Made by a program: the position numbers and the translations under genes. DNA of 63,828 nucleotides, filler included, from Rhabdomonas costata (lineage: Eukaryota), in NCBI GenBank assembly GCA_019059605.1. It is 52 parts of 52 records of this genome, joined end to end, with 100 filler letters (N's around TTAATTAATTAA, not from the genome) between each part and the next. Parts side by side here need not be neighbours in the genome. Positions count along the whole stretch, not along the records: positions 8,608 to 9,737 come from JAHMHO010027129.1; 51 more parts are not named here. One strand, given 5' to 3'. Of this stretch, positions 1 through 63,828 are shown in pieces (position 1 is the stretch's first letter; every line of letters starts with the position of its first letter). Below the pieces are notes generated by a model. It made no database searches. It had not been told where the DNA came from and saw only the letters and a program-made list of their open reading frames with translations.

Positions 1-1303
1 TCAAAAAGGTGGAAACAACAGTCGACCCCACGCATTTACGAATTGGCCTGTGCGCGAAGCCCGGTATTCACCCGGGCTCCGCGATGCTGGAACCACAGGT
101 TTGCTGGAGCTGCATAATATTGCGCGCCGTCCTTCCCTGAGCTCAGAGGAAAATCAGCTTTCCAAATTCTGCACAGCTTCCTGCTCCCCAGTGGGAGTTT
201 CTATTTGCATTGTACTGGGAGGGAGGGTGTGTGATATCCGTGCGATGTCATGAACTGGGCTTTGTTTCCCCCATTTTCTCTTATTCGTCCGGGCAGGTGA
301 GAACTTGGGCTCTCGGGCTGCGCCCGCAGCTCTGCAGGCAACCTGACGACCACTTTCTTCCCGCACGGCCCCGCGGGCTGTACCAGCCTTTCATCTTGTA
401 ATGATGCAAATGCGCTCTGTTGTCCAGTAGTCAGCCGTTTTTGGCTGGTCTGGACTAAAGTGTGTGTGGGAGGTGTTGTATCTGTTGCAATGGTAGTCAT
501 GGGCGAGAACGCGGAGCAATTCTTCTGACGAATACGAGTGCGTACTTAATTGGCAATATGTGTGTTGTGTTTGCTTGTTGGAGGGTGCTCTCCACTATGC
601 TGAGAGCGTTGACAGAGATGAGTACAAGTCAAAATGCGCGGGCATTTGTGATGACCGCAACGTCTCGTACATATTTTTTTTTGCCGAAAGATGGGCGATG
701 TGCAGCTGGAGCAGATGACAAGGAACAGCACAGCAGTCGTCATGCAGCACAAATGATGCCCTTGTGAGCCCTTTCACTGTCCTCTTCTCTGGCGGCCGTT
801 TGAGAGGTTCCAAGCGAGAATAGGACATCTGAGTAGTCTGAAACTCAGCAAGACACTTTTATTTGCTGCTTGCTCCTACCATCACTGTGGAGTTGGCCAG
901 AAAAGTTAAACGACTTAGTCCACATATGTGGACTGAGACTTTATGGCGACAACAGAAATCGCTCCCTCTCAATTTGGTTCTGCAAATCCTTTGCTGGTGG
1001 TTTTTCCATTCATTCCGCGAAGTCAGTTGGCTTTGAATCGTTTATTTGCCCTACAACACATGAGGGGGGGCGGGGGCGGTAACGCCTCCTAACCCCAGGC
1101 ATCTTGCTGGGGGGCTCCGCCCCCCCACACNNNNNNNNNNNNNNNNNNNNNNNNNNNNNNNNNNNNNNNNNNNNTTAATTAATTAANNNNNNNNNNNNNN
1201 NNNNNNNNNNNNNNNNNNNNNNNNNNNNNNCCCTGAAATTTTTTTCAGTTGCCGCCTTTCTATTTATGCTGTGTGGTGCACGTTTGGACGTTTCAACACC
1301 CAA

Positions 1304-2360
1304 ATGAGCGCAGAGCAAGCAAGACTGCACAGCGATTCAGGTGATACCAGTGAGTGCCACTCCCCACACTATGGTGAGGACTTCGAAGACTCCGACGATA
1401 ACTTTGACCTGGATATTTCTCAGCTTCAAGGGGTCGCGTGCTCAATCCATTCCGAGAGGCAAAAGATAAAATCTGACTACAGCAACGACGCGTTTTGCTC
1501 TGAGGCGTCTTCGGATTGTTCAAACGACCGTTCTTCTGGAGCTCGGAGATCCAATGCACCTGCAACTTCAGGGACTGCTTCAGGGACCGCTGCTTCGCCC
1601 GTGTCCTCACTTGTGCTTCGCAAGAGTGGTTCTTCTTCTCCTTCTCAGGACTCACCTGGTGCTTTGTCGAAGGCAGGCGTCCTCGCTCCTGGGGGGCACC
1701 AGTCTTCATCCTCAAAGGTTCACTTTGAAGCAGCTCCTGGCGAGAAAAGCAGCAAGACGAACGTTGCCCCTGCTGTGGATCCTGTGCCAGTAGTTAAAGT
1801 GCGATTGATACAGTCTGGGGCTGAGCTTGATGTCGCCGCCTTGACAGACCCATCGTCCCCCCCACTCGCCTCGGCTTCCTCGATTTTTGCCTCAGCAATG
1901 ATTGGCCGAACAAAGCCCACAACGGTATCCGAGCGGCCCACCACGCACGATGTAGCATCCTTGGCTGAGAAGCGCTCAAGCCCCGATCGGCCCATCGCAG
2001 GGCAGTCGGGCGGAACACTCCCACCTGCGGCTTTGTCCTCAGCCTTTCGGGCGGTAGGCAAGGAAACGGCTGCTCCAAGTACGACACTTCCGGAATCTCC
2101 TGAGAAACCACCCGGCGCCTTATCCGCAGGCATTGGAGGAGGGTACTCAGGCGTCGCAGCGGCGGATGTCACATCCAACCATGTCTCGGCTTCTTCCATA
2201 TTTGCCTCTGCGGTGGGAGGCCGCGGAAAGCGTCCGGGGTCAAGTCCGCCCCCAGCCAGCCCTGGCATCCCCTTGTCTTCCGTGAGCTCCTCAAGCCCCG
2301 ATCGGCCCATCGCAGGGCCGTCGGACGGAAAATCCTCACCCACGGCTTCGACCCACAAAA
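1304..2360 (+). CDS. Ser/Ala/Pro-rich low-complexity protein with a 105-aa internal repeat (partial, 3' truncated)
   Basis: Open for >350 codons from ATG 1304. SASSIFASA and SSPDRPIAG each recur at a 315-nt period (1871/2186; 1976/2291). Confidence 0.75.
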
Positions 2361-8169: not shown

Positions 8170-8286
8170 ATGAGTGGGAAGAAGGCGTCGTGGAACGCGG
8201 GCAACCCCTCTGTGAAGCGGATCCTTCGGGAGGCTGCGGAGCTAAGGCAGAACCCCTGCCGGGAGTTCGTGGCCTACCCCACTGAG
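8170..8286 (+). CDS. UBE2J1: ubiquitin-conjugating enzyme E2, UBC6/UBE2J1-like, first exon
   Basis: MSGKKASWNAGNPSVKRILREAAELRQNPCREFVAYPTE then GAG|GTAACC donor. The PxVKRxxxEAxEL start is typical of UBE2J1. Absent from the ORF track. Confidence 0.8.
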
Positions 8287-8648
8287 GTAACCAGAGATTC
8301 CTGAGAGAAAGAAACACTGGGTTCTGTTTCCTTCTCTCCATTTTTTTCGATTTCGTTTTCCTTGTTCTTTGGTCTTGGTCTTTTTTCTGTCCCCCGATGT
8401 TATTAATTTGGGCTCCATAAGAGAACGGTTGGTACCCAAAAAAAACCGTTCAGCTACTGCAATGCATTTGGGACGTGTGTGTGTGGGGGGCTGACAGGAG
8501 TCCGTGTNNNNNNNNNNNNNNNNNNNNNNNNNNNNNNNNNNNNNNNNNNNNTTAATTAATTAANNNNNNNNNNNNNNNNNNNNNNNNNNNNNNNNNNNNN
8601 NNNNNNNTGAAGAAGCTCACGGATGCGGTCGATCATTTAATCGTTTAG

Positions 8649-9661
8649 GTGAAAATCATGGATCGCGCCCTGCTCGAGCAGCAGCATTACATGCAGCAGG
8701 TGTTTGCAATTCTTTGATTTGCCCTTTCCGGGACCCTTGACTTGTTTACTTGTGCATATCCACTCACTTGCCCCACACAGCATTTTCTTTCAGAATCTTT
8801 CAGAATTTCCGTTCAGAATTGGAGTCTTGTTAAGGAGGAGTCTTGTTCAGGTTGTTCAGGGAGGATAAGAAACTCAGACTTAAGTCTGACGGGTTGTGTC
8901 AGGCCATCGCAGAGCCTTGTTTTGCAAACCATGTACCGCAGGTGGAGCAGGAGGTGGCCGTGCTGCGGGCGCTGGACCACCCCGGCGTGTCTGAATTGTA
9001 CGCCTTCTTCCAAGACCAGCAGAGGGTGTACCTCGTGCTGGAGTACTGCCCGCAAGGAACGCCCCTTTGCCTATGAGTCAGCGGAGCAGATAGAGAGCCA
9101 TGTTTTTGTGCTGGGTGGTGGCTCGTCTCATGTATATTTTTTGCGGTGCAAATAGTAGTAAGTTATATCCCGAAACTCAGAATTCAGTATGTTTCCAATT
9201 GAAAACTTGGCAACGCTATAAAATGTCGCCTGGTATGTATGCATACGATAACGTTTTTAACGTTTTCACATGCTACTGAGGCTGAAAGGTCGTATTCTGA
9301 GTTTACGGTGTAGTGTGCAATACTTAGTAAACGTTAGCATTTCGTTAAGGAAGTTGGGTTCCGGTTTCGAAGCCGTGGTCCTCTGTTATATTCGTCCCCT
9401 CGCGTCTCAGGTTTTATGAGCGCCGATTGTGGATGATGCGTTTACAGGTGACTTGTTCTCGGCGGTCCTGGAGTCGGGAAGCACTGTCAGTGTGGAATGG
9501 CTGCGGTTCTGCCTGAGTGAGCTGGTGTGTTATAACTCTTTGATCCCCAGAGTGCATCTGAATTACGCTGTTCTCTCATGCCCTTCTGGTTTTGCTGCAC
9601 GTTTCAGACGGTTGTGCTGCAGCACATTCACAACGCTGGCTACTACTACGGCGACCTCAAG
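8649..9661 (+). CDS. Ser/Thr protein kinase (AGC/PDK1-like), exons 8649-8699, 8942-9056, 9448-9524, 9608-9661
   Basis: Spliced VKIMDRALLEQQHYMQQ|VEQEVAVLRALDHPGVSELYAFFQDQQRVYLVLEYCPQ|GDLFSAV...LSEL|TVVLQHIHNAGYYYGDLK covers kinase subdomains II-VIb. Confidence 0.92.
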
Positions 9662-9961
9662 GTATCCCTCCACACACATACACACACACACCGTCCTCAC
9701 TTCCCCTTTAGGTCTGGGCTCCTGAGACAACAAAACANNNNNNNNNNNNNNNNNNNNNNNNNNNNNNNNNNNNNNNNNNNNTTAATTAATTAANNNNNNN
9801 NNNNNNNNNNNNNNNNNNNNNNNNNNNNNNNNNNNNNGTGCATTAAAGGCGGTTATGTGTGCGTTTCATCGCGTCTCCCTTGTCGCCTTGCCAGAAATAT
9901 TGTGTCACTCCGCACGCCTTGCTTTTTCTGCTTTTTGTGAAACGTCACGAACAACTAACAG

Positions 9962-10136: not shown

Positions 10137-11071
10137 GTGCGCGCTGTGCACATGCCTCTGCGCTCTTCTTCGTGGCTGTGTGTAGGATGGGCCGTGTTGC
10201 GGTGTGCTGTGTTCTTTTGGTGGTGTCGATGACTGATGGCAGTGGTGGTGGTGGTAGTGGTTTTACCTGTGCTGGGAGGCATTGTGGTGCTTATCAAGCA
10301 CTGCAACCCAAGAGAGGCATGAGGCTTGAAACCGTGATCGGTTTAGAGGACCGCGGGGCATTTACTGTGGAGGCGGCAGTCATTCGAAATCACGTGAGGC
10401 GTACTTTGTGCTATATGCGGACGGTTCCTTATTATAACATTCCTTCATTCCCTTAACCAATACACGACGAAGAACACCAAAGTCACTGGAAGCAACCATA
10501 TCATCCCCCCCCCCGAATTTACAGCACTATCTCGGGCAAGTAATGCACCGTGGCATGCGACTTTCAATTTAACAGTTCAACAGGAATTTAACAGCCGTCT
10601 TCGGACATTAAAACGACCTTATGCATGTCATTAAGTTTCGCATTTGAGGTTCCATGGTCAGTTTTAAAAGAAGTGTCGTTTCAGCTCTGCCGTTCACTTT
10701 TAAGATGACCCACGCCATAGTATTCCACAGATTGTATCTTTTTTGGCCTTCTGCCGCTGTTTTTCTTGCCGGAACGCTGCTCTCTTCAAACTGTGCTATA
10801 AAGAAACCGTGGTAGAATGGGAGAATAGTTTTCACAGAAAGGAGGCAGGTCCATTTTTGCGGCTTCCTATCTGCCGCATGGGGTTGTGGCACGTTCACAT
10901 TCTTGGATACGTAGATACGTTTATGAGCATATGCATCCTTCGCGGCAGATGCCATCACCCGACCCCCNNNNNNNNNNNNNNNNNNNNNNNNNNNNNNNNN
11001 NNNNNNNNNNNTTAATTAATTAANNNNNNNNNNNNNNNNNNNNNNNNNNNNNNNNNNNNNNNNNNNNGTTG

Positions 11072-11168
11072 TGGGGGCTTCAGGGGGTACTCGTGGGGAA
11101 ACCTCAGGCGGATCTGGTATGAACCCCCCGAGTAGGGCGTGCCCGTGGGGCCTGTCAGCTCGGCGTAC
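11072..11168 (-). CDS. ubiquitin-conjugating enzyme E2 exon (truncated by contig end)
   Basis: YAELTGPTGTPYSGGSYQIRLRFPHEYPLKPP matches the UBC GPxxTPYxGG...FPxxYPxxPP motif. CACAG| acceptor. Confidence 0.92.
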
Positions 11169-20743: not shown

Positions 20744-21040
20744 AGAAATACAGGTGGGAATCCCGAGAGTGCGTCCAGGATGACAACCCCGGTCCTCCGG
20801 TTCCCCAAACCCCCCNNNNNNNNNNNNNNNNNNNNNNNNNNNNNNNNNNNNNNNNNNNNTTAATTAATTAANNNNNNNNNNNNNNNNNNNNNNNNNNNNN
20901 NNNNNNNNNNNNNNNTGTGTGGTGGATTAGGTGCCCCATCCACATGGAATCGGGTGGTACCATGAAAGAAGAATTGAAGAAGCTTTCTCTTGCCGTTGGT
21001 GAGTGGCACGTTTTTCTGATATAGTCCGGGTTTTTTTCAG

Positions 21041-22042
<1,002 letters not shown>

Positions 22043-22145
22043 ACNNNNNNNNNNNNNNNNNNNNNNNNNNNNNNNNNNNNNNNNNNNNTTAATTAATTAA
22101 NNNNNNNNNNNNNNNNNNNNNNNNNNNNNNNNNNNNNNNNNNNNG

Positions 22146-23144
22146 GTTGTGGTGAACTCCAAAGCAGAGGTTCTGGTGGTGCAGGAGAAGCAGTACGGGA
22201 AGCACTGGAAACTTCCCGGGGGGCTGGTGGAACCCGGGGAGGACCTGGCTAGGGCCGCGGTGCGGGAGGTCTTCGAGGAGACAGGGGTGAGGTGCCGGTT
22301 CCTCGGCCTCCTGGCAGTGCGGGAGAAGCATTTGGAGTGCATGTTTGGAAATCGCATCGGAGCTTCGCACATCGCCATATAAGTATTCCTATGGCTGAAA
22401 CCATTTTGAGGACTTTCGTTTTGGGGGTACCCCTTGTTTTCTTCATGCGACATTTCCAAGGTAGCTGGTAACGTAAAGGACGAGGGATTAATTTTTTGGA
22501 AGTGGTTTTGCACTTCCTGCTTCCCATCCTGTTCGTGGCATATTTATTGTGCAAAAGAAAGCTTGGACACAGCTTCACGCTCCTCTGCTCGACTGTTGTA
22601 TTCGTAAAAATTTCACCGCGTTGATAACTGCACATAAATGCACCCAAAAATGGATGTGCTACCGTCACCGTTTCGAATAGTAGGTGGCCTCCCGTTCGTC
22701 CTCGGGCTGCCTTCCACTGATATTCAATACGTCGCTGGTGTGCGCACTCCCGCTGCGTTTCCCGTGCCCGAGCAGCACGGCTACCTGTGGGGGCGCGATG
22801 ACCTCTACTTTGTCGCCCACCTGGAGCCCACCTCGGACGCAGAGCAAATCACGATGTGCGAGACTGAGCTCGCTGCTTGCCAATGGATGCCCCTTGAGGC
22901 CTACCTCAGCAGTGACAAGATCAACCCCATCTCCAGGCACATCGCGGCATGTGCCAAGGCTGCCGTGGCCGGAGCCTCGGCCTCTGTGGAGGTGTGCGGG
23001 GTGCAGATTCAGTACGCCCCCGCCACGGACAAGTACCACACCTTCTTCAGCCACTTGAATGGTCCCGCTCAAACGGTGCTCTCGGGGCTGTCGCTGGATT
23101 CGGCACAAAAGCCAGTCTACAAGCCCTACGAGGCTACTCTGTGA
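22146..23144 (+). CDS. Nudix hydrolase, NUDT6-like; last two exons separated by a ~447-nt non-canonical intron
   Basis: VLVVQEK...[28 protein letters not shown] (Nudix box), resuming at [13 protein letters not shown]...[13 protein letters not shown]. Stop TGA at 23142-23144. Confidence 0.93.
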
Positions 23145-23605
23145 AATTGTTTTAAGTTTTGAGGAGGGTGTGTTCATGGTGCTGCTGGTCGAATAGTGCA
23201 TGCATGCATCCACAGCTTGTCCTGTTCTTGTCTATCTATAAGACAGGATAGGCACCCCCACCCCAACCAAAGANNNNNNNNNNNNNNNNNNNNNNNNNNN
23301 NNNNNNNNNNNNNNNNNTTAATTAATTAANNNNNNNNNNNNNNNNNNNNNNNNNNNNNNNNNNNNNNNNNNNNCTAGAATGTCTTCTAACATACAGAAGG
23401 CATATGAAAGGAGTATCCTTGCTGGGAGGACAAAGCACAGGAACAGCAAAGCACCTGGCGCACACGGAGGTTGAGGTTCCATTTGCTCTCAGTCTTCGAC
23501 AGAGTGATCTCTGTGTTTTGCTTTGTGTGCCCGCCTCCATCCATCGCAGTGGTCTCTTCCCTTCCGGCGCCCAAGTCTATGTGGTGCTTTCGTTTTTTGT
23601 TTGTG

Positions 23606-41700: not shown

Positions 41701-44586
41701 GCAACACAACNNNNNNNNNNNNNNNNNNNNNNNNNNNNNNNNNNNNNNNNNNNNTTAATTAATTAANNNNNNNNNNNNNNNNNNNNNNNNNNNNNNNNNN
41801 NNNNNNNNNNGTTGTGTGGGCTGGCGGCGCACAGCATGCAGGCCAGCTCGCTCACCGTGCCCCCGTGGAGGCAGGCCTGGTTTCTGCGGAAGTGCTTCCG
41901 GCGAGGCCTGGCGACGGCGACAGGCAGAACGGGCGATAGCGGTGAGGGCGCTTCCGAAGGACCCGCCTGCAATTCCCACCCCGACGAGGTCTCGATAGAG
42001 AGCTGAGAAACAGATCAGAGGCAGAGCTTAAGCCAGTTTTTTATGGAAAACAACCACATTCGCACGCACGCCAGCAAGATCTTCAGGCGTTGTGCACACA
42101 TCACTTGCGAAGCCACACATGGAACTCCCCCAAAGAAGCTTGAGAATAGTACACGGCGAATTCGGAGCATACGTGACTTAGGGCGACTGGCTCATTGTGG
42201 TGGTGGCCGTGCTCGGCGTTTCCGACAAACCCCAGGGTGTAACAAACGATTGTAGGTAACACCTGCTCCTGCTTGAACAGAGCATTACGTGAAGCAAAGA
42301 AATAACACGTTTCCTTCGAAATATTCTTTGAAAGCAGATTCCAGATTCGTGGTCTACCGGGGTCTATGTACATTGTTTTTGCATTTTTCAGGTTATGCTC
42401 AAATTGTTGACTGACCAATACTCAGACTGTTTTGCGTCAGTGGGAAGACTTTCCATGTTATTTTGCACGTGAAGAGGTCTTGTTTGTTTGTGTGTGAGGC
42501 CTTTTTTAAATACATTTGACATGGAAAGAAAATCTTTCCTAATGCTAACTATTGCGGCATTGTGAATTCTGCTGGGCCGAACCCTGACGCACATTTACAC
42601 ACACATCGCTCGCCTGTGAACTGACGGCAGTGAGTACACTGCACCGCGCGCTGAGAAGTTATCTCCTCCGGGAACCTGTGGTTAACAGCGCCCGTCGGCG
42701 TATAGCTGTCACCAACAGCCCGTCAGGCAGCATCCAGTCAACGCCCTACTGCGATATGCACCCCTTGAGCGCGCGCTGACATACCCTTTCAATTTGTCAT
42801 CGTGGATCGTGGGTGGGTAAGTCAACTCAAAACAGGGCGTGGAGACGCGAGCATCACTACGCCTCACTGTTCTCGCGCAACCAGAACAAGTGCAAGCCAT
42901 GTGATTCACTTCCGCTCACAGCGCGACGCACAAAACACANNNNNNNNNNNNNNNNNNNNNNNNNNNNNNNNNNNNNNNNNNNNTTAATTAATTAANNNNN
43001 NNNNNNNNNNNNNNNNNNNNNNNNNNNNNNNNNNNNNNNGGTTGTTGTTTCCATGACTGCTTCAGCAACTCGTGCGCGCTTCCTCGCCCCATGGTCCCTA
43101 GCATGCCCTCTGCTCCGCCATTGCTTTTTGTTTTGATACCTTTGTTTGGATATCCCAGTTGTTGTGACACAGTGCGGTAATACACAGGAAGAATGAAAAG
43201 CAAGGAGTGCGTCGGTGGTGAAGAGCAGGGGAAGGAGCGGGTGTGGTACCGATTGAGGAGGTCACCTGGGGATCCATCCGGTGCATCTCCGCCGCGCTGA
43301 CCAGAGATCGAGACGGGGGGGCCGTAGGCAGCGGTGGAAGGGTCCCTTGGATGGCGTGGGGAGTTTCCCTGAGGCTGGAGCTCCCTGAGGCGTCGGCGCC
43401 CAGCAAGGGGTACATCGGGCTGCTGGGCGCCCGACTGGGCTGACTGGTGCTGGCTCGGGAGCTGGGCAGGAGGTAGGTCGGGCCATTGGAGGAGGAGGGG
43501 CCCCCGCTGCCACTACCGCCCCCGTTGCCACCCCCACTGCACCCGCGGGAATGGCGGCTGAGCAGCAGGCAGGCGGTCTCCAGAACAAGCCCCACCGGGT
43601 CGGGGGAGGTCGCGCCCAGGTGAAAGTGCAGGATGAACTGTTGTGATTTTGAGGAAGGGACGCACATTGTTCAGCACCGGACGTACCAGCCCCTCCACCA
43701 CCACCCTGCTTGCCTAATCAGCTGCAATGCAGACAGCCTTGCGGCAGGCCTTCACCCCCCATGATGTGGACAGGACGGAGGGGGAAGGGGCGGACCGCCC
43801 GCGCGTCCCGAACTTACAGCTACATTGTCTCTTTGAGCAGGTTTGCTTTGCTTAACACCGTGAAAGTTTCTCATCGCAGTTTCGAGAACTGAGGGGCATA
43901 ACAATAAGGTAGGTTACGCCGTATACTCAAAATCCACGCTTTTTCAGCCCTGGACACGTCAGAATCAATGATTCGCTCTGAGGTGGAGGTGTGGAAGACA
44001 ATTTTCAAGCACTCAGGAGCACTCCAGGAATCCGATTGGAAACTTGCAACAAACTTAACTCTGAAGTTCACGATGTAGCTAAACTTCAGAGTTAAGTTTG
44101 TTGCAAGTTTCCAATCGGATTCCTGGAGTGCTCCTGAGTGCTTGAAAATTGTCTTCCACACCACCACCNNNNNNNNNNNNNNNNNNNNNNNNNNNNNNNN
44201 NNNNNNNNNNNNTTAATTAATTAANNNNNNNNNNNNNNNNNNNNNNNNNNNNNNNNNNNNNNNNNNNNGTCCGACGTGATCCTGGACGAGGTTCAGGCTG
44301 GATGACCTCAGCGTGGCGACGGAATGCTAGCTTTATCTTATTCCTTTTGTTCTGGTGGTTCACTATAGTGTTGGCTGTGTCATTCGTCCAGGGCTCGTTA
44401 TTTTCTGGTGTCGTCGGGGCATCTTTTCGTTCCTCGGCTTTACTTTGTTCTGGCTCTTGGGTCTTGCTTAACCTATGTTGGGTGAACGTTGAAATGTACG
44501 GATCATCTCTGCTCCTCTTTGCTTTTTTTTTCATCCACGAATTCAGCTTAGGAGGTGTTCTCGTTATCTGTGAACTGCTCATGCAG

Positions 44587-45138
44587 GGTCGCGTTTTCTT
44601 CTGGCGGAATGCACCGCCCATGGCTGCGGACGCCAGCGTGACGGCCTCCTCCCACAAATTGCTGTCGTTGGCCCTGCCCAGCGTTGACACAGATGGGGAT
44701 ATCTTATACTGTGTGATAACCAAACTCCCAACACAGGGTATGCTTTGTGCTGACACCCCTTATTCTTGTTGTCGTCTATTTTCGGGCTTCAGTGCATCCT
44801 TGCACTTCCTCTGCCCCGTGGCCTCAGGTTCCCTGTACCAGTCCACTGACGGCTCGCCCATTCTTAGCCCTGGGACGGTGGTCGCCAGCCCGGGCTGCGA
44901 GATAATGTTCCAGAGCTCCGGGTATGGGTGGGGCCTGGGATACACCACCTTCCAGTACGGGGTGCTGGAGCAGGCCATCCACCCTACGAACCTGAGCTTC
45001 GCTGCAGCGGTGGCCACGATCACGGTCGACGTGACGTACACCAGCAGCCTGCCCGAGCTTGGGGCTCCGGCCCGTGCCACGATGCTTGAGGACTCCTCTG
45101 GGGCTGTGCTGCAGATCACCGCGAGCGACCCGAATGGG
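44587..45138 (+). CDS. surface protein with cadherin-like/bacterial Ig-like repeats, exons 44587-44737 and 44828-45138
   Basis: NAPPMAADASVT...DTDGDILYCVITKLPTQ|GSLYQ...TTFQY...ITVDV...MLEDS...ITASDPNG. GT-AG intron 44738-44827. Confidence 0.8.
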
Positions 45139-45922
45139 GTATGCCTCTTGTGTTGTATTTTGGGGGAAATTAGGTGTTCGATTGAGCAGCGGTACTTGCG
45201 GCATTGTTTGGATAGCTGTCTCTTTAGGCAGGATTTATGTGATTGCCAGGTGGGCGAAAAATCTCTCTGTACATCGGACACACAGTGTATCCGAACACCA
45301 CATGCGTTAACTCCCTGCATAGCATGTCGCTTGCAAGTCCTCGCCCGGGATACACCCTGCACCTCAAGTGTCTCCGGTTTTGCACTGCAACAAACAANNN
45401 NNNNNNNNNNNNNNNNNNNNNNNNNNNNNNNNNNNNNNNNNTTAATTAATTAANNNNNNNNNNNNNNNNNNNNNNNNNNNNNNNNNNNNNNNNNNNNGTG
45501 TGTTTGTTTGTGGACGTTCCATGGACGTTCAATCGCTCAAGCCGCTCGGTCAAAAAGTGGTTCGGCTAATGATGAACGCAACCAGAAGACTGACACGTGA
45601 GAGGTGACAACTGCTGTTGCAATCGCGGTGTTCTCTTTTGGTTCTACGTAATAGTCAGATATTGCTGCAAACACTGCTGCCTGCTTGAGGTCCGGATGTC
45701 TCTGCAGTTGAATGCATAGACTTTAACCCACAGTTTTCGAGGCATCATCATTACCATCATCAATAACACCAACAGACGAGACACCGACTGCTGGTTCATC
45801 CACGCGCATCGACAAACTCAGCACGAAGCGAAGCAACTAAAATAAATTATCTGCAAGCCACAGATGCGAAAGGGCCCAACCCCAACAGCAGCCCGTCACA
45901 TCTCCTTTGGAATCAAACGTAC

Positions 45923-54135: not shown

Positions 54136-54733
54136 CTGGAGCAGCTTCCGATCAATCCGGTCGATGTCCAGCAGGACGTGGTCGTACATCTGCTCGGCCT
54201 TGCCCAGGGCCTTGCTGTCCAGCACGTCCGCCTCGGGGTGAGCGTGTAACTGTCGTGCATTGAGCACGATCTGCTCGATGTCACTGACAAACTTCTGTGT
54301 GCAGATTTTGCAGCGAGTGGTGATACTGGTTCTTCGAAATACAGCTTCAGTTTCTTTCCACTACAAGGTAAAAAAGATAACTAGTGGCCATATGCCTTAG
54401 AAACCCTAAATTGAATGAGCAAATGCAACGCACTAGAATGAAGTTCGTTTCAGAAAAAGAAGGCTTATTTCAAACAGCAGCCATAGTCAAAATGCATCAG
54501 ACGCAAATAAAGATAACATAAGGGAACTGGAAACCAATCCAAGGAACGTGATATTTGTGTGTGAGTCTTCCACCTGAATGCTGGTGTATTCTCCGTCATT
54601 GCACCTCCGCATGCAGTCGGTCAGCCACAGCGGCTTCTTCACGGTGGCGTAGAAGCCCGGGCACTCGCTGGGATCCACGGGCTTGTGGAAGGGCGCGAAC
54701 TTCCTGTCATTCTGCAACCTCAGGATGATGTCC
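54136..54733 (-). CDS. ATAD2/Yta7-like bromodomain, exons ~54733-54574 and 54294-54136
   Basis: RDIILRLQNDRKFAPFHKPVDPSECPGFYATVKKPL...EYTSIQ|KFVSDIEQIVLNA...KAEQMYD. GT-AG intron 54573-54295. Confidence 0.85.
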
Positions 54734-62699: not shown

Positions 62700-63770
62700 T
62701 TGTCGGGAGAGTCTTCGCAATGCATCCCCAAGCAGCGCCAGCCCGTGCCCCGTGAAGCTGTTGCCAACGAGGCCCAAGTCCAACGTCACCAGCCCTCGAC
62801 ACTCCCGGAGTCGTGACAGCACTGAAACAGAGGCATCACTGAGTCCTGTGTAACCAAGGTTAACCGCCAAGAAGGAAAGACTATTGACCGGCAGTCCTTC
62901 CATCACATGGGAGACGCCCACGTCCCCAATCTGGTTCACCTCCAGATCGAGCCCTAAAGTGGTGAGTCGCGTTAGTGCCGCACATGCCTGGAAGCCCAGA
63001 AGGGAATCCGCGGTTAAGTTGGTGAGTGAAAGGTCCAAGCATAAGCTTGTCAGACTTTGGCCCAAGGAGGCCGTCAGAAGGTCCGACCAGCGGAGAGAAG
63101 AATCCACACCAATCCTTGCGTTTCCACACAGCTGAACAGTGAGCACCCGCAAGCAAGGGAGACTGCCCAGCGTCCGCCAAAGCACATTGACCCCAGTAGC
63201 CTGCAAACCATTGGCCTGCAGATTGAGCAGAAGCTCCCGCAGCTGCAGTGCGGCAGCTATGCTCCCGGACAGCGAATTGCAGTCACCGTCGTCCAGGTGA
63301 CAATCCTCAAGGCTTAGCTGAAGCTGAGTGAGTCGAGGAGCCTGGAAGCAGCGGGATAGGGTCGCCATGCCGCTGCTGGTGTGCCTGCGGATGAAGTCCA
63401 TCCGAAGGACAAGCCGGTGAAGGGTCGGGCAGCAGCGCAGCTCGCCAAGACCCTCACAGCTCTGCTCCACGTACCCCCTCAGCCCAAAGGTAGAGAGCTC
63501 CAGGCTCTCCAGCTCCAGGCATCCCCGTAGAGAGCGCAGGAATGGCGGCAGCGCCTCGCGCCAGGACCTTTCCAAAGTAGTGAGGTCGAGCACAGCAGTG
63601 CGCAGCCCGCATTCCACAAGTCGGCCGAAAAGCTTTTCCGGTGGAACAGCCGAACCATGGATCGCGCGCAGATGGACCAGTCTTGCCCACCGCCGCGAGA
63701 CCAGACAAAATGCGGGAGACTTCTTGAAGGAGAAGATGCAGTTCAGGACATCGGTAGGGAGAGAGGCCAT
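62700..63770 (-). CDS. F-box + RI-like leucine-rich repeat protein (intronless here, 3' truncated)
   Basis: LPTDVLNCIFSF...LVSRRW F-box, followed by ~28-aa LxxLxLxLxxNxI repeats (e.g. LTTLGLDLEVNQIGDVG). Confidence 0.9.
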
Positions 63771-63828
63771 ACGGGAGCACAAAAAGCTCTAGCCGAAATG
63801 AATGAGTGCAAAAAAGAAAACTAGCAAC

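Follow-up and report, generated by a model that had tools for sequence, protein, structure and literature searches.

The kinase gene and its introns

We analysed a 63,828-base stretch of the genome of the euglenid Rhabdomonas costata (hereafter the window), in which one contig carries part of a protein kinase gene with an intron that lacks the GT opening its neighbours. The window is composed of 52 independent contigs of 1124-1139 base pairs (bp) each (nearly all 1129 or 1130), apparently sorted by length and joined through 51 linkers of 100 nucleotides (nt), in which runs of N flank TTAATTAATTAA. Since these parts are separate, unrelated contigs, only positions 8608-9737 belong to the kinase gene, and neighbourhood arguments across a linker are void. 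The contig carries the following features, with a caret marking the border between exon and intron.

8608..9737, + strand: kinase-bearing contig, delimited by the linker map
8608..8648, + strand: 3' end of an upstream intron (...CGTTTAG), clipped by the contig edge
8649..8699, + strand: kinase exon 1, 17 codons, from tblastn to residues 581-598 of the homologue P0011 and gapless alignment
8700..8941, + strand: GT-AG intron of 242 nt, CAG^GTGTTTGC...CCGCAG^G
8942..9056, + strand: kinase exon 2, with a 3' border at 9054-9057 depending on intron placement, from the Pkinase profile and P0011 residues 597-636
9055..9057, + strand: 5' copy of an AGG direct repeat that lets the intron borders slide
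9057..9447, + strand: non-GT intron of 391 nt in its GA..AG placement, from the gapless join; four placements, none canonical
9057..9062, + strand: 5' arm of a terminal helix, GAACGC, from the minimum-free-energy (MFE) and centroid folds
9438..9443, + strand: 3' arm of the terminal helix, GCGTTT, from the same two folds
9446..9448, + strand: AGG direct repeat, 3' copy
9448..9524, + strand: kinase exon 3, from tblastn to P0011 residues 635-661 and gapless alignment
9525..9607, + strand: GT-AG intron of 83 nt, CTG^GTGTGTTA...GTTTCAG^A
9608..9661, + strand: kinase exon 4, ending in the catalytic-loop motif YGDLK, from tblastn to P0011 and gapless alignment
9662..9737, + strand: 5' end of a downstream intron, AAG^GTATCCCT, clipped by the contig edge

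Homologues place the exon join

Exon 2 alone matched the Pkinase profile (PF00069) over positions 47-83 of 263 (E 2.5e-7), with a score of 30.8 bits that falls just below the 31.7-bit whole-protein cut-off, in keeping with a length of only 39 residues. In a search of solved structures, it aligned with Aurora kinase chains up to its last residue, and exon 3 alone returned only three chance matches (E > 1). When exon 2 was used as a query against 1.84 billion representative proteins, 187 matches were obtained at E <= 0.001; comparison of the best 150 of these with the contig by tblastn showed that P0011 spans all four exons colinearly. P0011 (eukprot:EG_transcript_2213) is a Euglena gracilis protein with PF01603 (B56) and PF00069 domains. 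The four exons were then joined by scripted coordinates and translated, giving a product of 99 residues. This product aligned without gaps with residues 581-679 of P0011 (57/99 identical, 58%, E 3e-40) and with residues 585-683 of P0151, a second euglenid protein, derived from a EukProt transcript (60/99 identical, 61%); its alignment with P0020 contains one gap, away from the 9056/9448 junction. Because the four-exon product aligns gaplessly with both P0011 and P0151, the join of exon 2, ending ...CCGCAAG at 9056, to exon 3, starting GTGAC at 9448, is, judged by homology, right to the residue. On the same comparison, we take the 391-nt gap as a real intron, lying in an R. costata gene for a protein kinase with a B56 domain.

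The family to which this gene belongs fuses a PP2A B56-type domain (PF01603) with a kinase domain. In the gene of the window (exon 4, 9608-9661), as in P0011, P0151 and P0020, the catalytic loop carries Y-G-D in place of the usual HRD, and more distant PF01603-bearing relatives include a protein of the haptophyte Chrysochromulina. A search for an own-species kinase protein over exon 2 gave no match at E <= 0.01 among 19 candidates, and no R. costata (RCo) entry occurred among 40 matches in a search limited to proteins of 494-1574 residues. Likewise, a metagenome scan for orthologous loci, in which 80 of 150 confirmed loci were kept, returned generic kinases with about 24-38% identity to P0011 and no orthologue.

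The intron borders slide and none is canonical

With an AGG at each junction, the intron has four equal placements, GA-AG being one of them, and all give the same mRNA: 9055-9445 (AG..AC), 9056-9446 (GG..CA), 9057-9447 (GA..AG) and 9058-9448 (AA..GG). None of the four has GT/GC-AG or AT-AC borders. A preliminary description of this DNA had located the exon join where the homologues now place it and had correctly read both the GAACGC start and the TTTACAG end of 9057-9447 and the GT-AG borders of the neighbouring introns, 8700-8941 and 9525-9607; its further step, that the intron therefore starts with GA, is not forced, given the slide allowed by the AGG repeat.

We then listed the open-frame GT/GC-AG or AT-AC alternatives that join exons 2 and 3. 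All 25 were rejected, as each gains or loses residues at the kinase hinge when compared with the gapless homologues, the nearest ones removing three residues or inserting four to five. Use of another GT donor, the outcome that the preliminary description had recognized as fatal to its reading, would change the length of the protein in every open-frame case. U12-type introns are recognized by AT-AC or GT-AG borders together with a conserved U12 donor box. A U12-type intron was also rejected: no placement starts with AT, and the AT-AC donors at 8995 and 9073 alter the protein length.

Conventional flanks around a possible GA donor

In the GA..AG placement, the intron reads AAG^GAA...TTTACAG^G, in which -1 and +1 are both G and +3 is A. 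Seven GT donors could be defined in the window: four flank the kinase and ubiquitin-conjugating-enzyme-like exons, two belong to a DEAD-box gene and one to a bromodomain gene. Without exception, these donors carry G at -1 and a purine at +3, and each of the six AG acceptors inspected ends in YAG. At these positions the kinase intron follows the conventional introns of the window; it departs from them at +2 only. Its donor continues with CGC at +4 to +6, positions at which the GT donors vary as well (GTGTTT, GTATCC, GTAACC). A scan of the whole window with Rfam gave no match, hence no small nuclear RNA.

The position of the intron may be shared with other euglenids. The similarity of two short homologues, P0004 (near P0011) and P0009 (near P0151), ends right after the same Gln-Gly, most simply because an intron interrupts this codon in other euglenids too. 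Conserved positions are typical of conventional euglenid introns, according to the available accounts (PMC3935182; PMC6221363), and for this reason an apparently conserved position favours removal by the spliceosome. In both P0004 and P0009, exons 1 and 2 are fused and the sequence then reads through into the intron at that Gln-Gly; a Pro-Leu a few codons into the read-through is common to P0004, P0009 and window positions 9057-9073. The translated sequences thus contain a hint that the start of the intron may be conserved between species.

GA-AG calls in published R. costata data

The draft genome of R. costata (143,763 contigs, N50 1194, 51.6% GC) was obtained from whole-genome-amplified DNA at an estimated 10-20x and is highly fragmented (PMC8219788). 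As summarized in that paper, all 29 complete introns of six model genes are GT-AG, whereas 1,164 non-canonical introns were predicted by the aligner. Such borders were supported by reads in 105 contigs; of the read-supported cases, 26 carry an annotation, and the authors accepted seven as putatively nonconventional. Among the 26 that are both annotated and verified by reads, Table S5 of the same study lists five with GA-AG borders.

Strings were tallied in the supplementary workbook of PMC8219788: GTAG/CTAC 4549+4912, GCAG/CTGC 308+326 and GAAG/CTTC 90+95. After subtraction of the five GA-AG rows of Table S5, the remainder was halved, on the assumption that the rows of Table S3 repeat those of Table S2. 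This derivation gives about 90 GA-AG calls among the 11,418 putative introns of R. costata in these tables, together with about 45 GG-AG, 61 CA-AG, 40 CG-AG, 40 AT-AG, 7 AA-AG and 3 TA-AG. Before an AG acceptor, the derived base at +2 is T in 82.9%, C in 5.6%, A in about 0.8% and G in about 0.4% of the introns. GC-AG introns stand at 634 vs 9,461 GT-AG in R. costata and at 659 vs 11,527 in E. gracilis, and their frequency in euglenids fits a tolerant +2 position. It is well known that euglenids have non-canonical introns and that GA-AG spliceosomal introns exist in other lineages; at the level of titles and abstracts, we found no publication linking GA-AG introns with euglenids.

Pairing of the intron ends

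The two ends of the intron can pair: GAACGC (9057-9062) and GCGTTT (9438-9443) form five Watson-Crick pairs and one G.U pair. The preliminary description had pointed to this pairing, and the helix does form on paper, but it is not clearly beyond chance. The energy of the end duplex was matched by 26% of 1000 shuffles for the 30-nt ends and by 45% of 500 shuffles for the 25-nt ends. As controls for the helix register we used 20,000 random stretches of 391 nt from the window, of which 7.7% contain a Watson-Crick helix of at least 5 bp between the first 12 and the last 15 nt. When 10 nt from each end were folded across a U7 linker (10+U7+10), the kinase intron reached -5.0 kcal/mol, as did 10% of random stretches, and its GT-AG neighbour -4.9 kcal/mol. 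Such pairing-energy tests do not discriminate: 18% of shuffles were as good as the nonconventional intron of a NUDIX hydrolase gene in the window, and 3.8% as good as one GT-AG intron.

The register of the helix can be compared with that of the nonconventional introns of Euglena. These introns have non-canonical, often slidable borders and a purine at the start of the intron and of the next exon; in the set described in PMC4770533, positions +4, +5 and +6 pair with -6, -7 and -8 in 54-55 of 55 cases, the triplet is CAG/CTG in 33 of 55, and a pyrimidine ends the upstream exon, and likewise the intron, in 49 of 55 cases each. Genome editing has defined a splicing code, 5'-N3CDG/CH'GN5-6^R, that is reported to cover 61.2% of the nonconventional introns of E. 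agilis (PMC12501133). As described in that work, single changes within CAG or CTG abolished splicing in knock-in assays, and a synthetic-intron assay showed that, besides the core triplet, a stable structure at the intron ends is required; the same work links the nonconventional route to the formation of circular RNA.

Weighing the explanations

The explanation we favour, while holding it at slightly short of even confidence, is that the kinase intron is a spliceosomal intron with a GA donor. An ordinary U2-type spliceosome would remove it from this donor and a normal AG acceptor (AAG^GAACGC...GCGTTTACAG^G), reading the AG at the exon end together with G at +1, a purine at +3 and YAG at the acceptor. 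It would tolerate A for T at +2, much as it accepts C there in GC-AG introns, which are frequent in euglenids. We infer both that the spliceosome removes the intron and that base 9058 is truly A in the genome. Several observations weigh against this explanation. Of the CGC at +4 to +6, only the G at +5 fits the textbook U1 donor consensus, and the C at +4 and at +6 are off it. The counts drawn from the supplement are exonerate calls, mostly unverified, and exonerate prefers placements that keep AG. A genome-wide tally of donors, a check put forward in the preliminary description, yields roughly 90 GA-AG calls from the published tables; GA-AG is not uniquely enriched there, because CA-AG, CG-AG and AT-AG are also common, and the authors appear not to comment on the GA-AG cases in the main text of PMC8219788. 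No own-species protein over exon 2 was found within the length range and candidates searched. Finally, the end-pairing register of the intron is that of Euglena nonconventional introns, which would be a coincidence if the intron is spliceosomal.

This register is the core of a second explanation, rather unlikely in our view, in which the intron is a euglenid nonconventional ('intermediate/nonconventional') intron with borders at 9056-9446, excised in a structure-dependent way after the neighbouring GT-AG introns. In that placement, the intron opens with the spacer GGA, followed by ACG/CGT pairing and, at the other end, the spacer TTACA, and the purine G9447 opens the next exon. The +4..+6/-8..-6 pairing (A9059-T9441, C9060-G9440, G9061-C9439) occurs in this one placement of the four, grows to +3/-5 and +7/-9, and forms the closing helix in the MFE as well as the centroid fold. 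The 3-bp register turns up in at least one of four slid placements in 5.9% of the random stretches, the 5-bp register (+3..+7/-9..-5) in only 0.38%. The intron also opens with a purine, its euglenid host has nonconventional introns, one of them within the window (in the NUDIX gene), and P0004 and P0009 have exons 1 and 2 fused yet read into the intron, as an order of removal of this kind would allow. Against this stand the triplet, which is ACG/CGT and neither CAG/CTG nor any CDG/CH'G form, and the purines A9055 and A9446 that end the upstream exon and the intron where pyrimidines are usual; placement 9055-9445 has C at both of these ends but loses the pairing register. The pairing energy lies within chance, and the whole-intron fold has a z of -0.10. 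As printed in Table S6 of PMC8219788, none of the seven R. costata nonconventional introns uses the +4..+6/-8..-6 register (one does if slid by one base), and all seven start with GC, as no placement of the kinase intron does. All 29 complete introns of the six model genes are, as mentioned, GT-AG. The AGG repeat is expected anyway from the conventional AG^G...AG^G consensus, and the conventional flanks of the GA..AG placement would in turn be coincidental. We consider that these flanks outweigh the helix register, because the known nonconventional introns of R. costata do not use that register.

Alternatively, the intron may be an ordinary GT-AG intron whose A at 9058 arose through a wrong base call, faulty assembly or DNA amplification, or represents a rare allele in the assembly. 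A T at +2 would give AAG^GTACGC...CAG^G, an unremarkable donor for the window, and the draft comes from amplified DNA at the low coverage given above. In addition, the exons of the NUDIX gene differ from the transcript-derived protein RCo007841 at one of 194 aligned residues, so genome and transcriptome disagree at roughly the per-mille level. However, a discrepancy of ~0.2% per base predicts some 6 GT-to-GA artefacts among about 9,500 GT-AG introns, which are exceeded by the about 90 GA-AG calls of the tables, five of them among the 26 verified and annotated cases. With about 6 artefacts expected against about 90 calls, the prior for a wrong base is several-fold below that for a real GA-AG intron; the four kinase exons, moreover, look otherwise undamaged. 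This explanation is improbable, and still more so is a dead or dying paralogue that lost its donor by a GT-to-GA mutation and leaves the intron unspliced. Such a paralogue would fit the missing own-species protein over exon 2, not found in a collection of 5.8 billion proteins that does contain other R. costata proteins, and the closest relatives, at just 58-61% identity, which imply that the kinase may be a divergent member of the family. Yet the four exons are open and gapless and keep the family motifs, including the YGDLK common to P0011, P0151 and P0020, and the remaining splice sites of the contig are intact. Absence from the R. costata transcriptome is weak evidence, owing to its reported 75% complete BUSCOs and 43.5% mapping of RNA reads (PMC8219788). 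Taken together, spliceosomal removal from a GA donor ranks first, followed by nonconventional excision, an error at +2 and an unspliced pseudogene; to explanations outside these four we give a share about as small as that of the +2 error. The two explanations offered by the preliminary description, relaxed reading of +2 by the spliceosome and a euglenid-type intermediate intron, are those that lead after testing, although it had overlooked the four placements and the possible error at +2.

Other genes in the window

A Pfam scan of 541 stop-to-stop open reading frames of at least 60 residues, covering the whole window, gave 11 with a match. The genes found in this way contributed five GT-AG introns, the kinase intron and one nonconventional intron, a number too small to tally donors. 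The last of these lies in a NUDIX hydrolase gene.

22328..22774, + strand: non-canonical intron of 447 nt in the NUDIX hydrolase gene, on the contig 22145-23273, junction fixed by RCo007841

The NUDIX exon at 22146-22379 is 100% identical to P0190 (eukprot:RCo007841), which agrees with R. costata or something nearly identical as the source of the window. Residues 114-174 of P0190 match 22149-22331, and residues 175-295 match about 22779-23141; the only difference lies in the C-terminal part, within 22743-23141 (+), with Thr in the window and Ala in P0190. The gene is not among the entries of Tables S5 and S6 of PMC8219788. Six placements of the intron are compatible with the protein, none of them GT/GC-AG; as placed at 22328-22774, it reads GAGAA^GCATTT...GAGCA^GCACG, and its two ends pair beginning at the first base. 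In this form, it fits the pattern of R. costata nonconventional introns (^GCA...^GCAC), which the kinase intron does not.

A DEAD-box helicase gene on the contig 20916-22044 (+) has GT-AG introns at 21116-21354 and 21438-21816. We take the encoded helicase to be DDX41-like. Its last exon in the contig (21993-22044, +) is followed by CAAG^GCACGG, and the 3' end lies beyond the contig. The first six intron bases are identical to those of the nonconventional intron of NODE_718 as published, and GCACGG may represent a GC donor or, alternatively, the start of a nonconventional intron. Two contigs hold possibly consecutive exons of a UBC6-type ubiquitin-conjugating enzyme, at 8171-8286 (+) and 11069-11164 (-): an N-terminal exon that ends GAG^GTAACC, and another that covers UQ_con profile positions 32-63. 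A bromodomain gene contains a 279-nt GT-AG intron at 54295-54573 (-), CAG^GTGGAAGA...CACACAG^AAG. Three further contigs, 1232-2359 (+), 44269-45396 (+) and 62700-63788 (-), are open in a single frame over nearly their whole length (363-376 codons); no Pfam family was found in the first two, and the third gave a weak F-box-like match (E 6.7e-4).

Implications and comparison with known intron systems

Euglenids run two intron-removal systems in parallel. The kinase intron offers a natural test case, as its flanks are conventional except at +2 and its ends carry a terminal helix in the nonconventional register; it could reveal what each splicing system reads and whether introns convert between types. 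It also points to the about 90 GA-AG calls of the Rhabdomonas tables, which the main text of that study appears not to discuss. Extending the spliceosomal reading, we tentatively propose, as a possibility we hold with less assurance than the reading of the kinase intron itself, that R. costata, and perhaps all euglenids, have spliceosomal GA-AG introns that form a distinct class, not yet discussed as such. This class would make up near 1% of introns and, if true, would amount to an unusually loose reading of the donor +2 position in R. costata, with the old, position-conserved kinase intron as a member. In a bolder variant, the kinase intron would be a true intermediate, with spliceosomal flanks and a Euglena-type helix, removable by either system. 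Taken by itself, a single GA-AG candidate from a draft of low coverage adds only modestly to a peculiarity for which the lineage is well known.

Among spliceosomal introns, the kinase intron resembles the GA-AG introns reported from Eurytemora affinis, Oikopleura dioica and human FGFR genes (PMC7072748) in its GA donor and AG acceptor. It shares with them the exon-end AG before GA, the A at +3 and the GT-AG neighbours in the same gene; Frey and Pucker (PMC7072748) give the flank AG^GA-A for GA-AG introns with RNA support in E. affinis and O. dioica. It differs from all these animal introns in its euglenid lineage and in being known from the DNA sequence.

With the nonconventional introns of Euglena, as described in PMC12501133, PMC4770533 and PMC11170887, it has in common the lack of any GT/GC-AG placement, the slidable borders and the spacers of 3 and 5 nt, as well as paired ends, a purine at the start of the intron and of the next exon, and GT-AG introns in the same gene. 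It departs from them in its ACG/CGT triplet, where these have CAG/CTG, CGG/CCG or CTG/CAG, in a helix of only 5 bp plus G.U with an energy within chance, and in its host, Rhabdomonas. One canonical-looking border together with paired ends recalls the 'intermediate/nonconventional' introns of Milanowski et al. 2016 (PMC4770533); unlike the cases with 5' GT or GC given there, the kinase intron looks canonical at its 3' AG and has GA at its 5' end. Intermediate introns have been argued in the same paper not to be a separate type.

Closest in host are the seven putative nonconventional introns of R. costata itself (Soukal et al. 2021, PMC8219788), with which the kinase intron shares non-canonical borders, repeats at the junctions and paired ends. 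As listed in Table S6 of that study, all seven start with GC, five of them with GCA, five end with CC, and the following exon starts with GCAC in four; as we read the printed ends, their helices exceed that of the kinase intron in length and lie farther inward. The resulting pattern, ^GC[A]...CC^G[CAC], is not that of the kinase intron.

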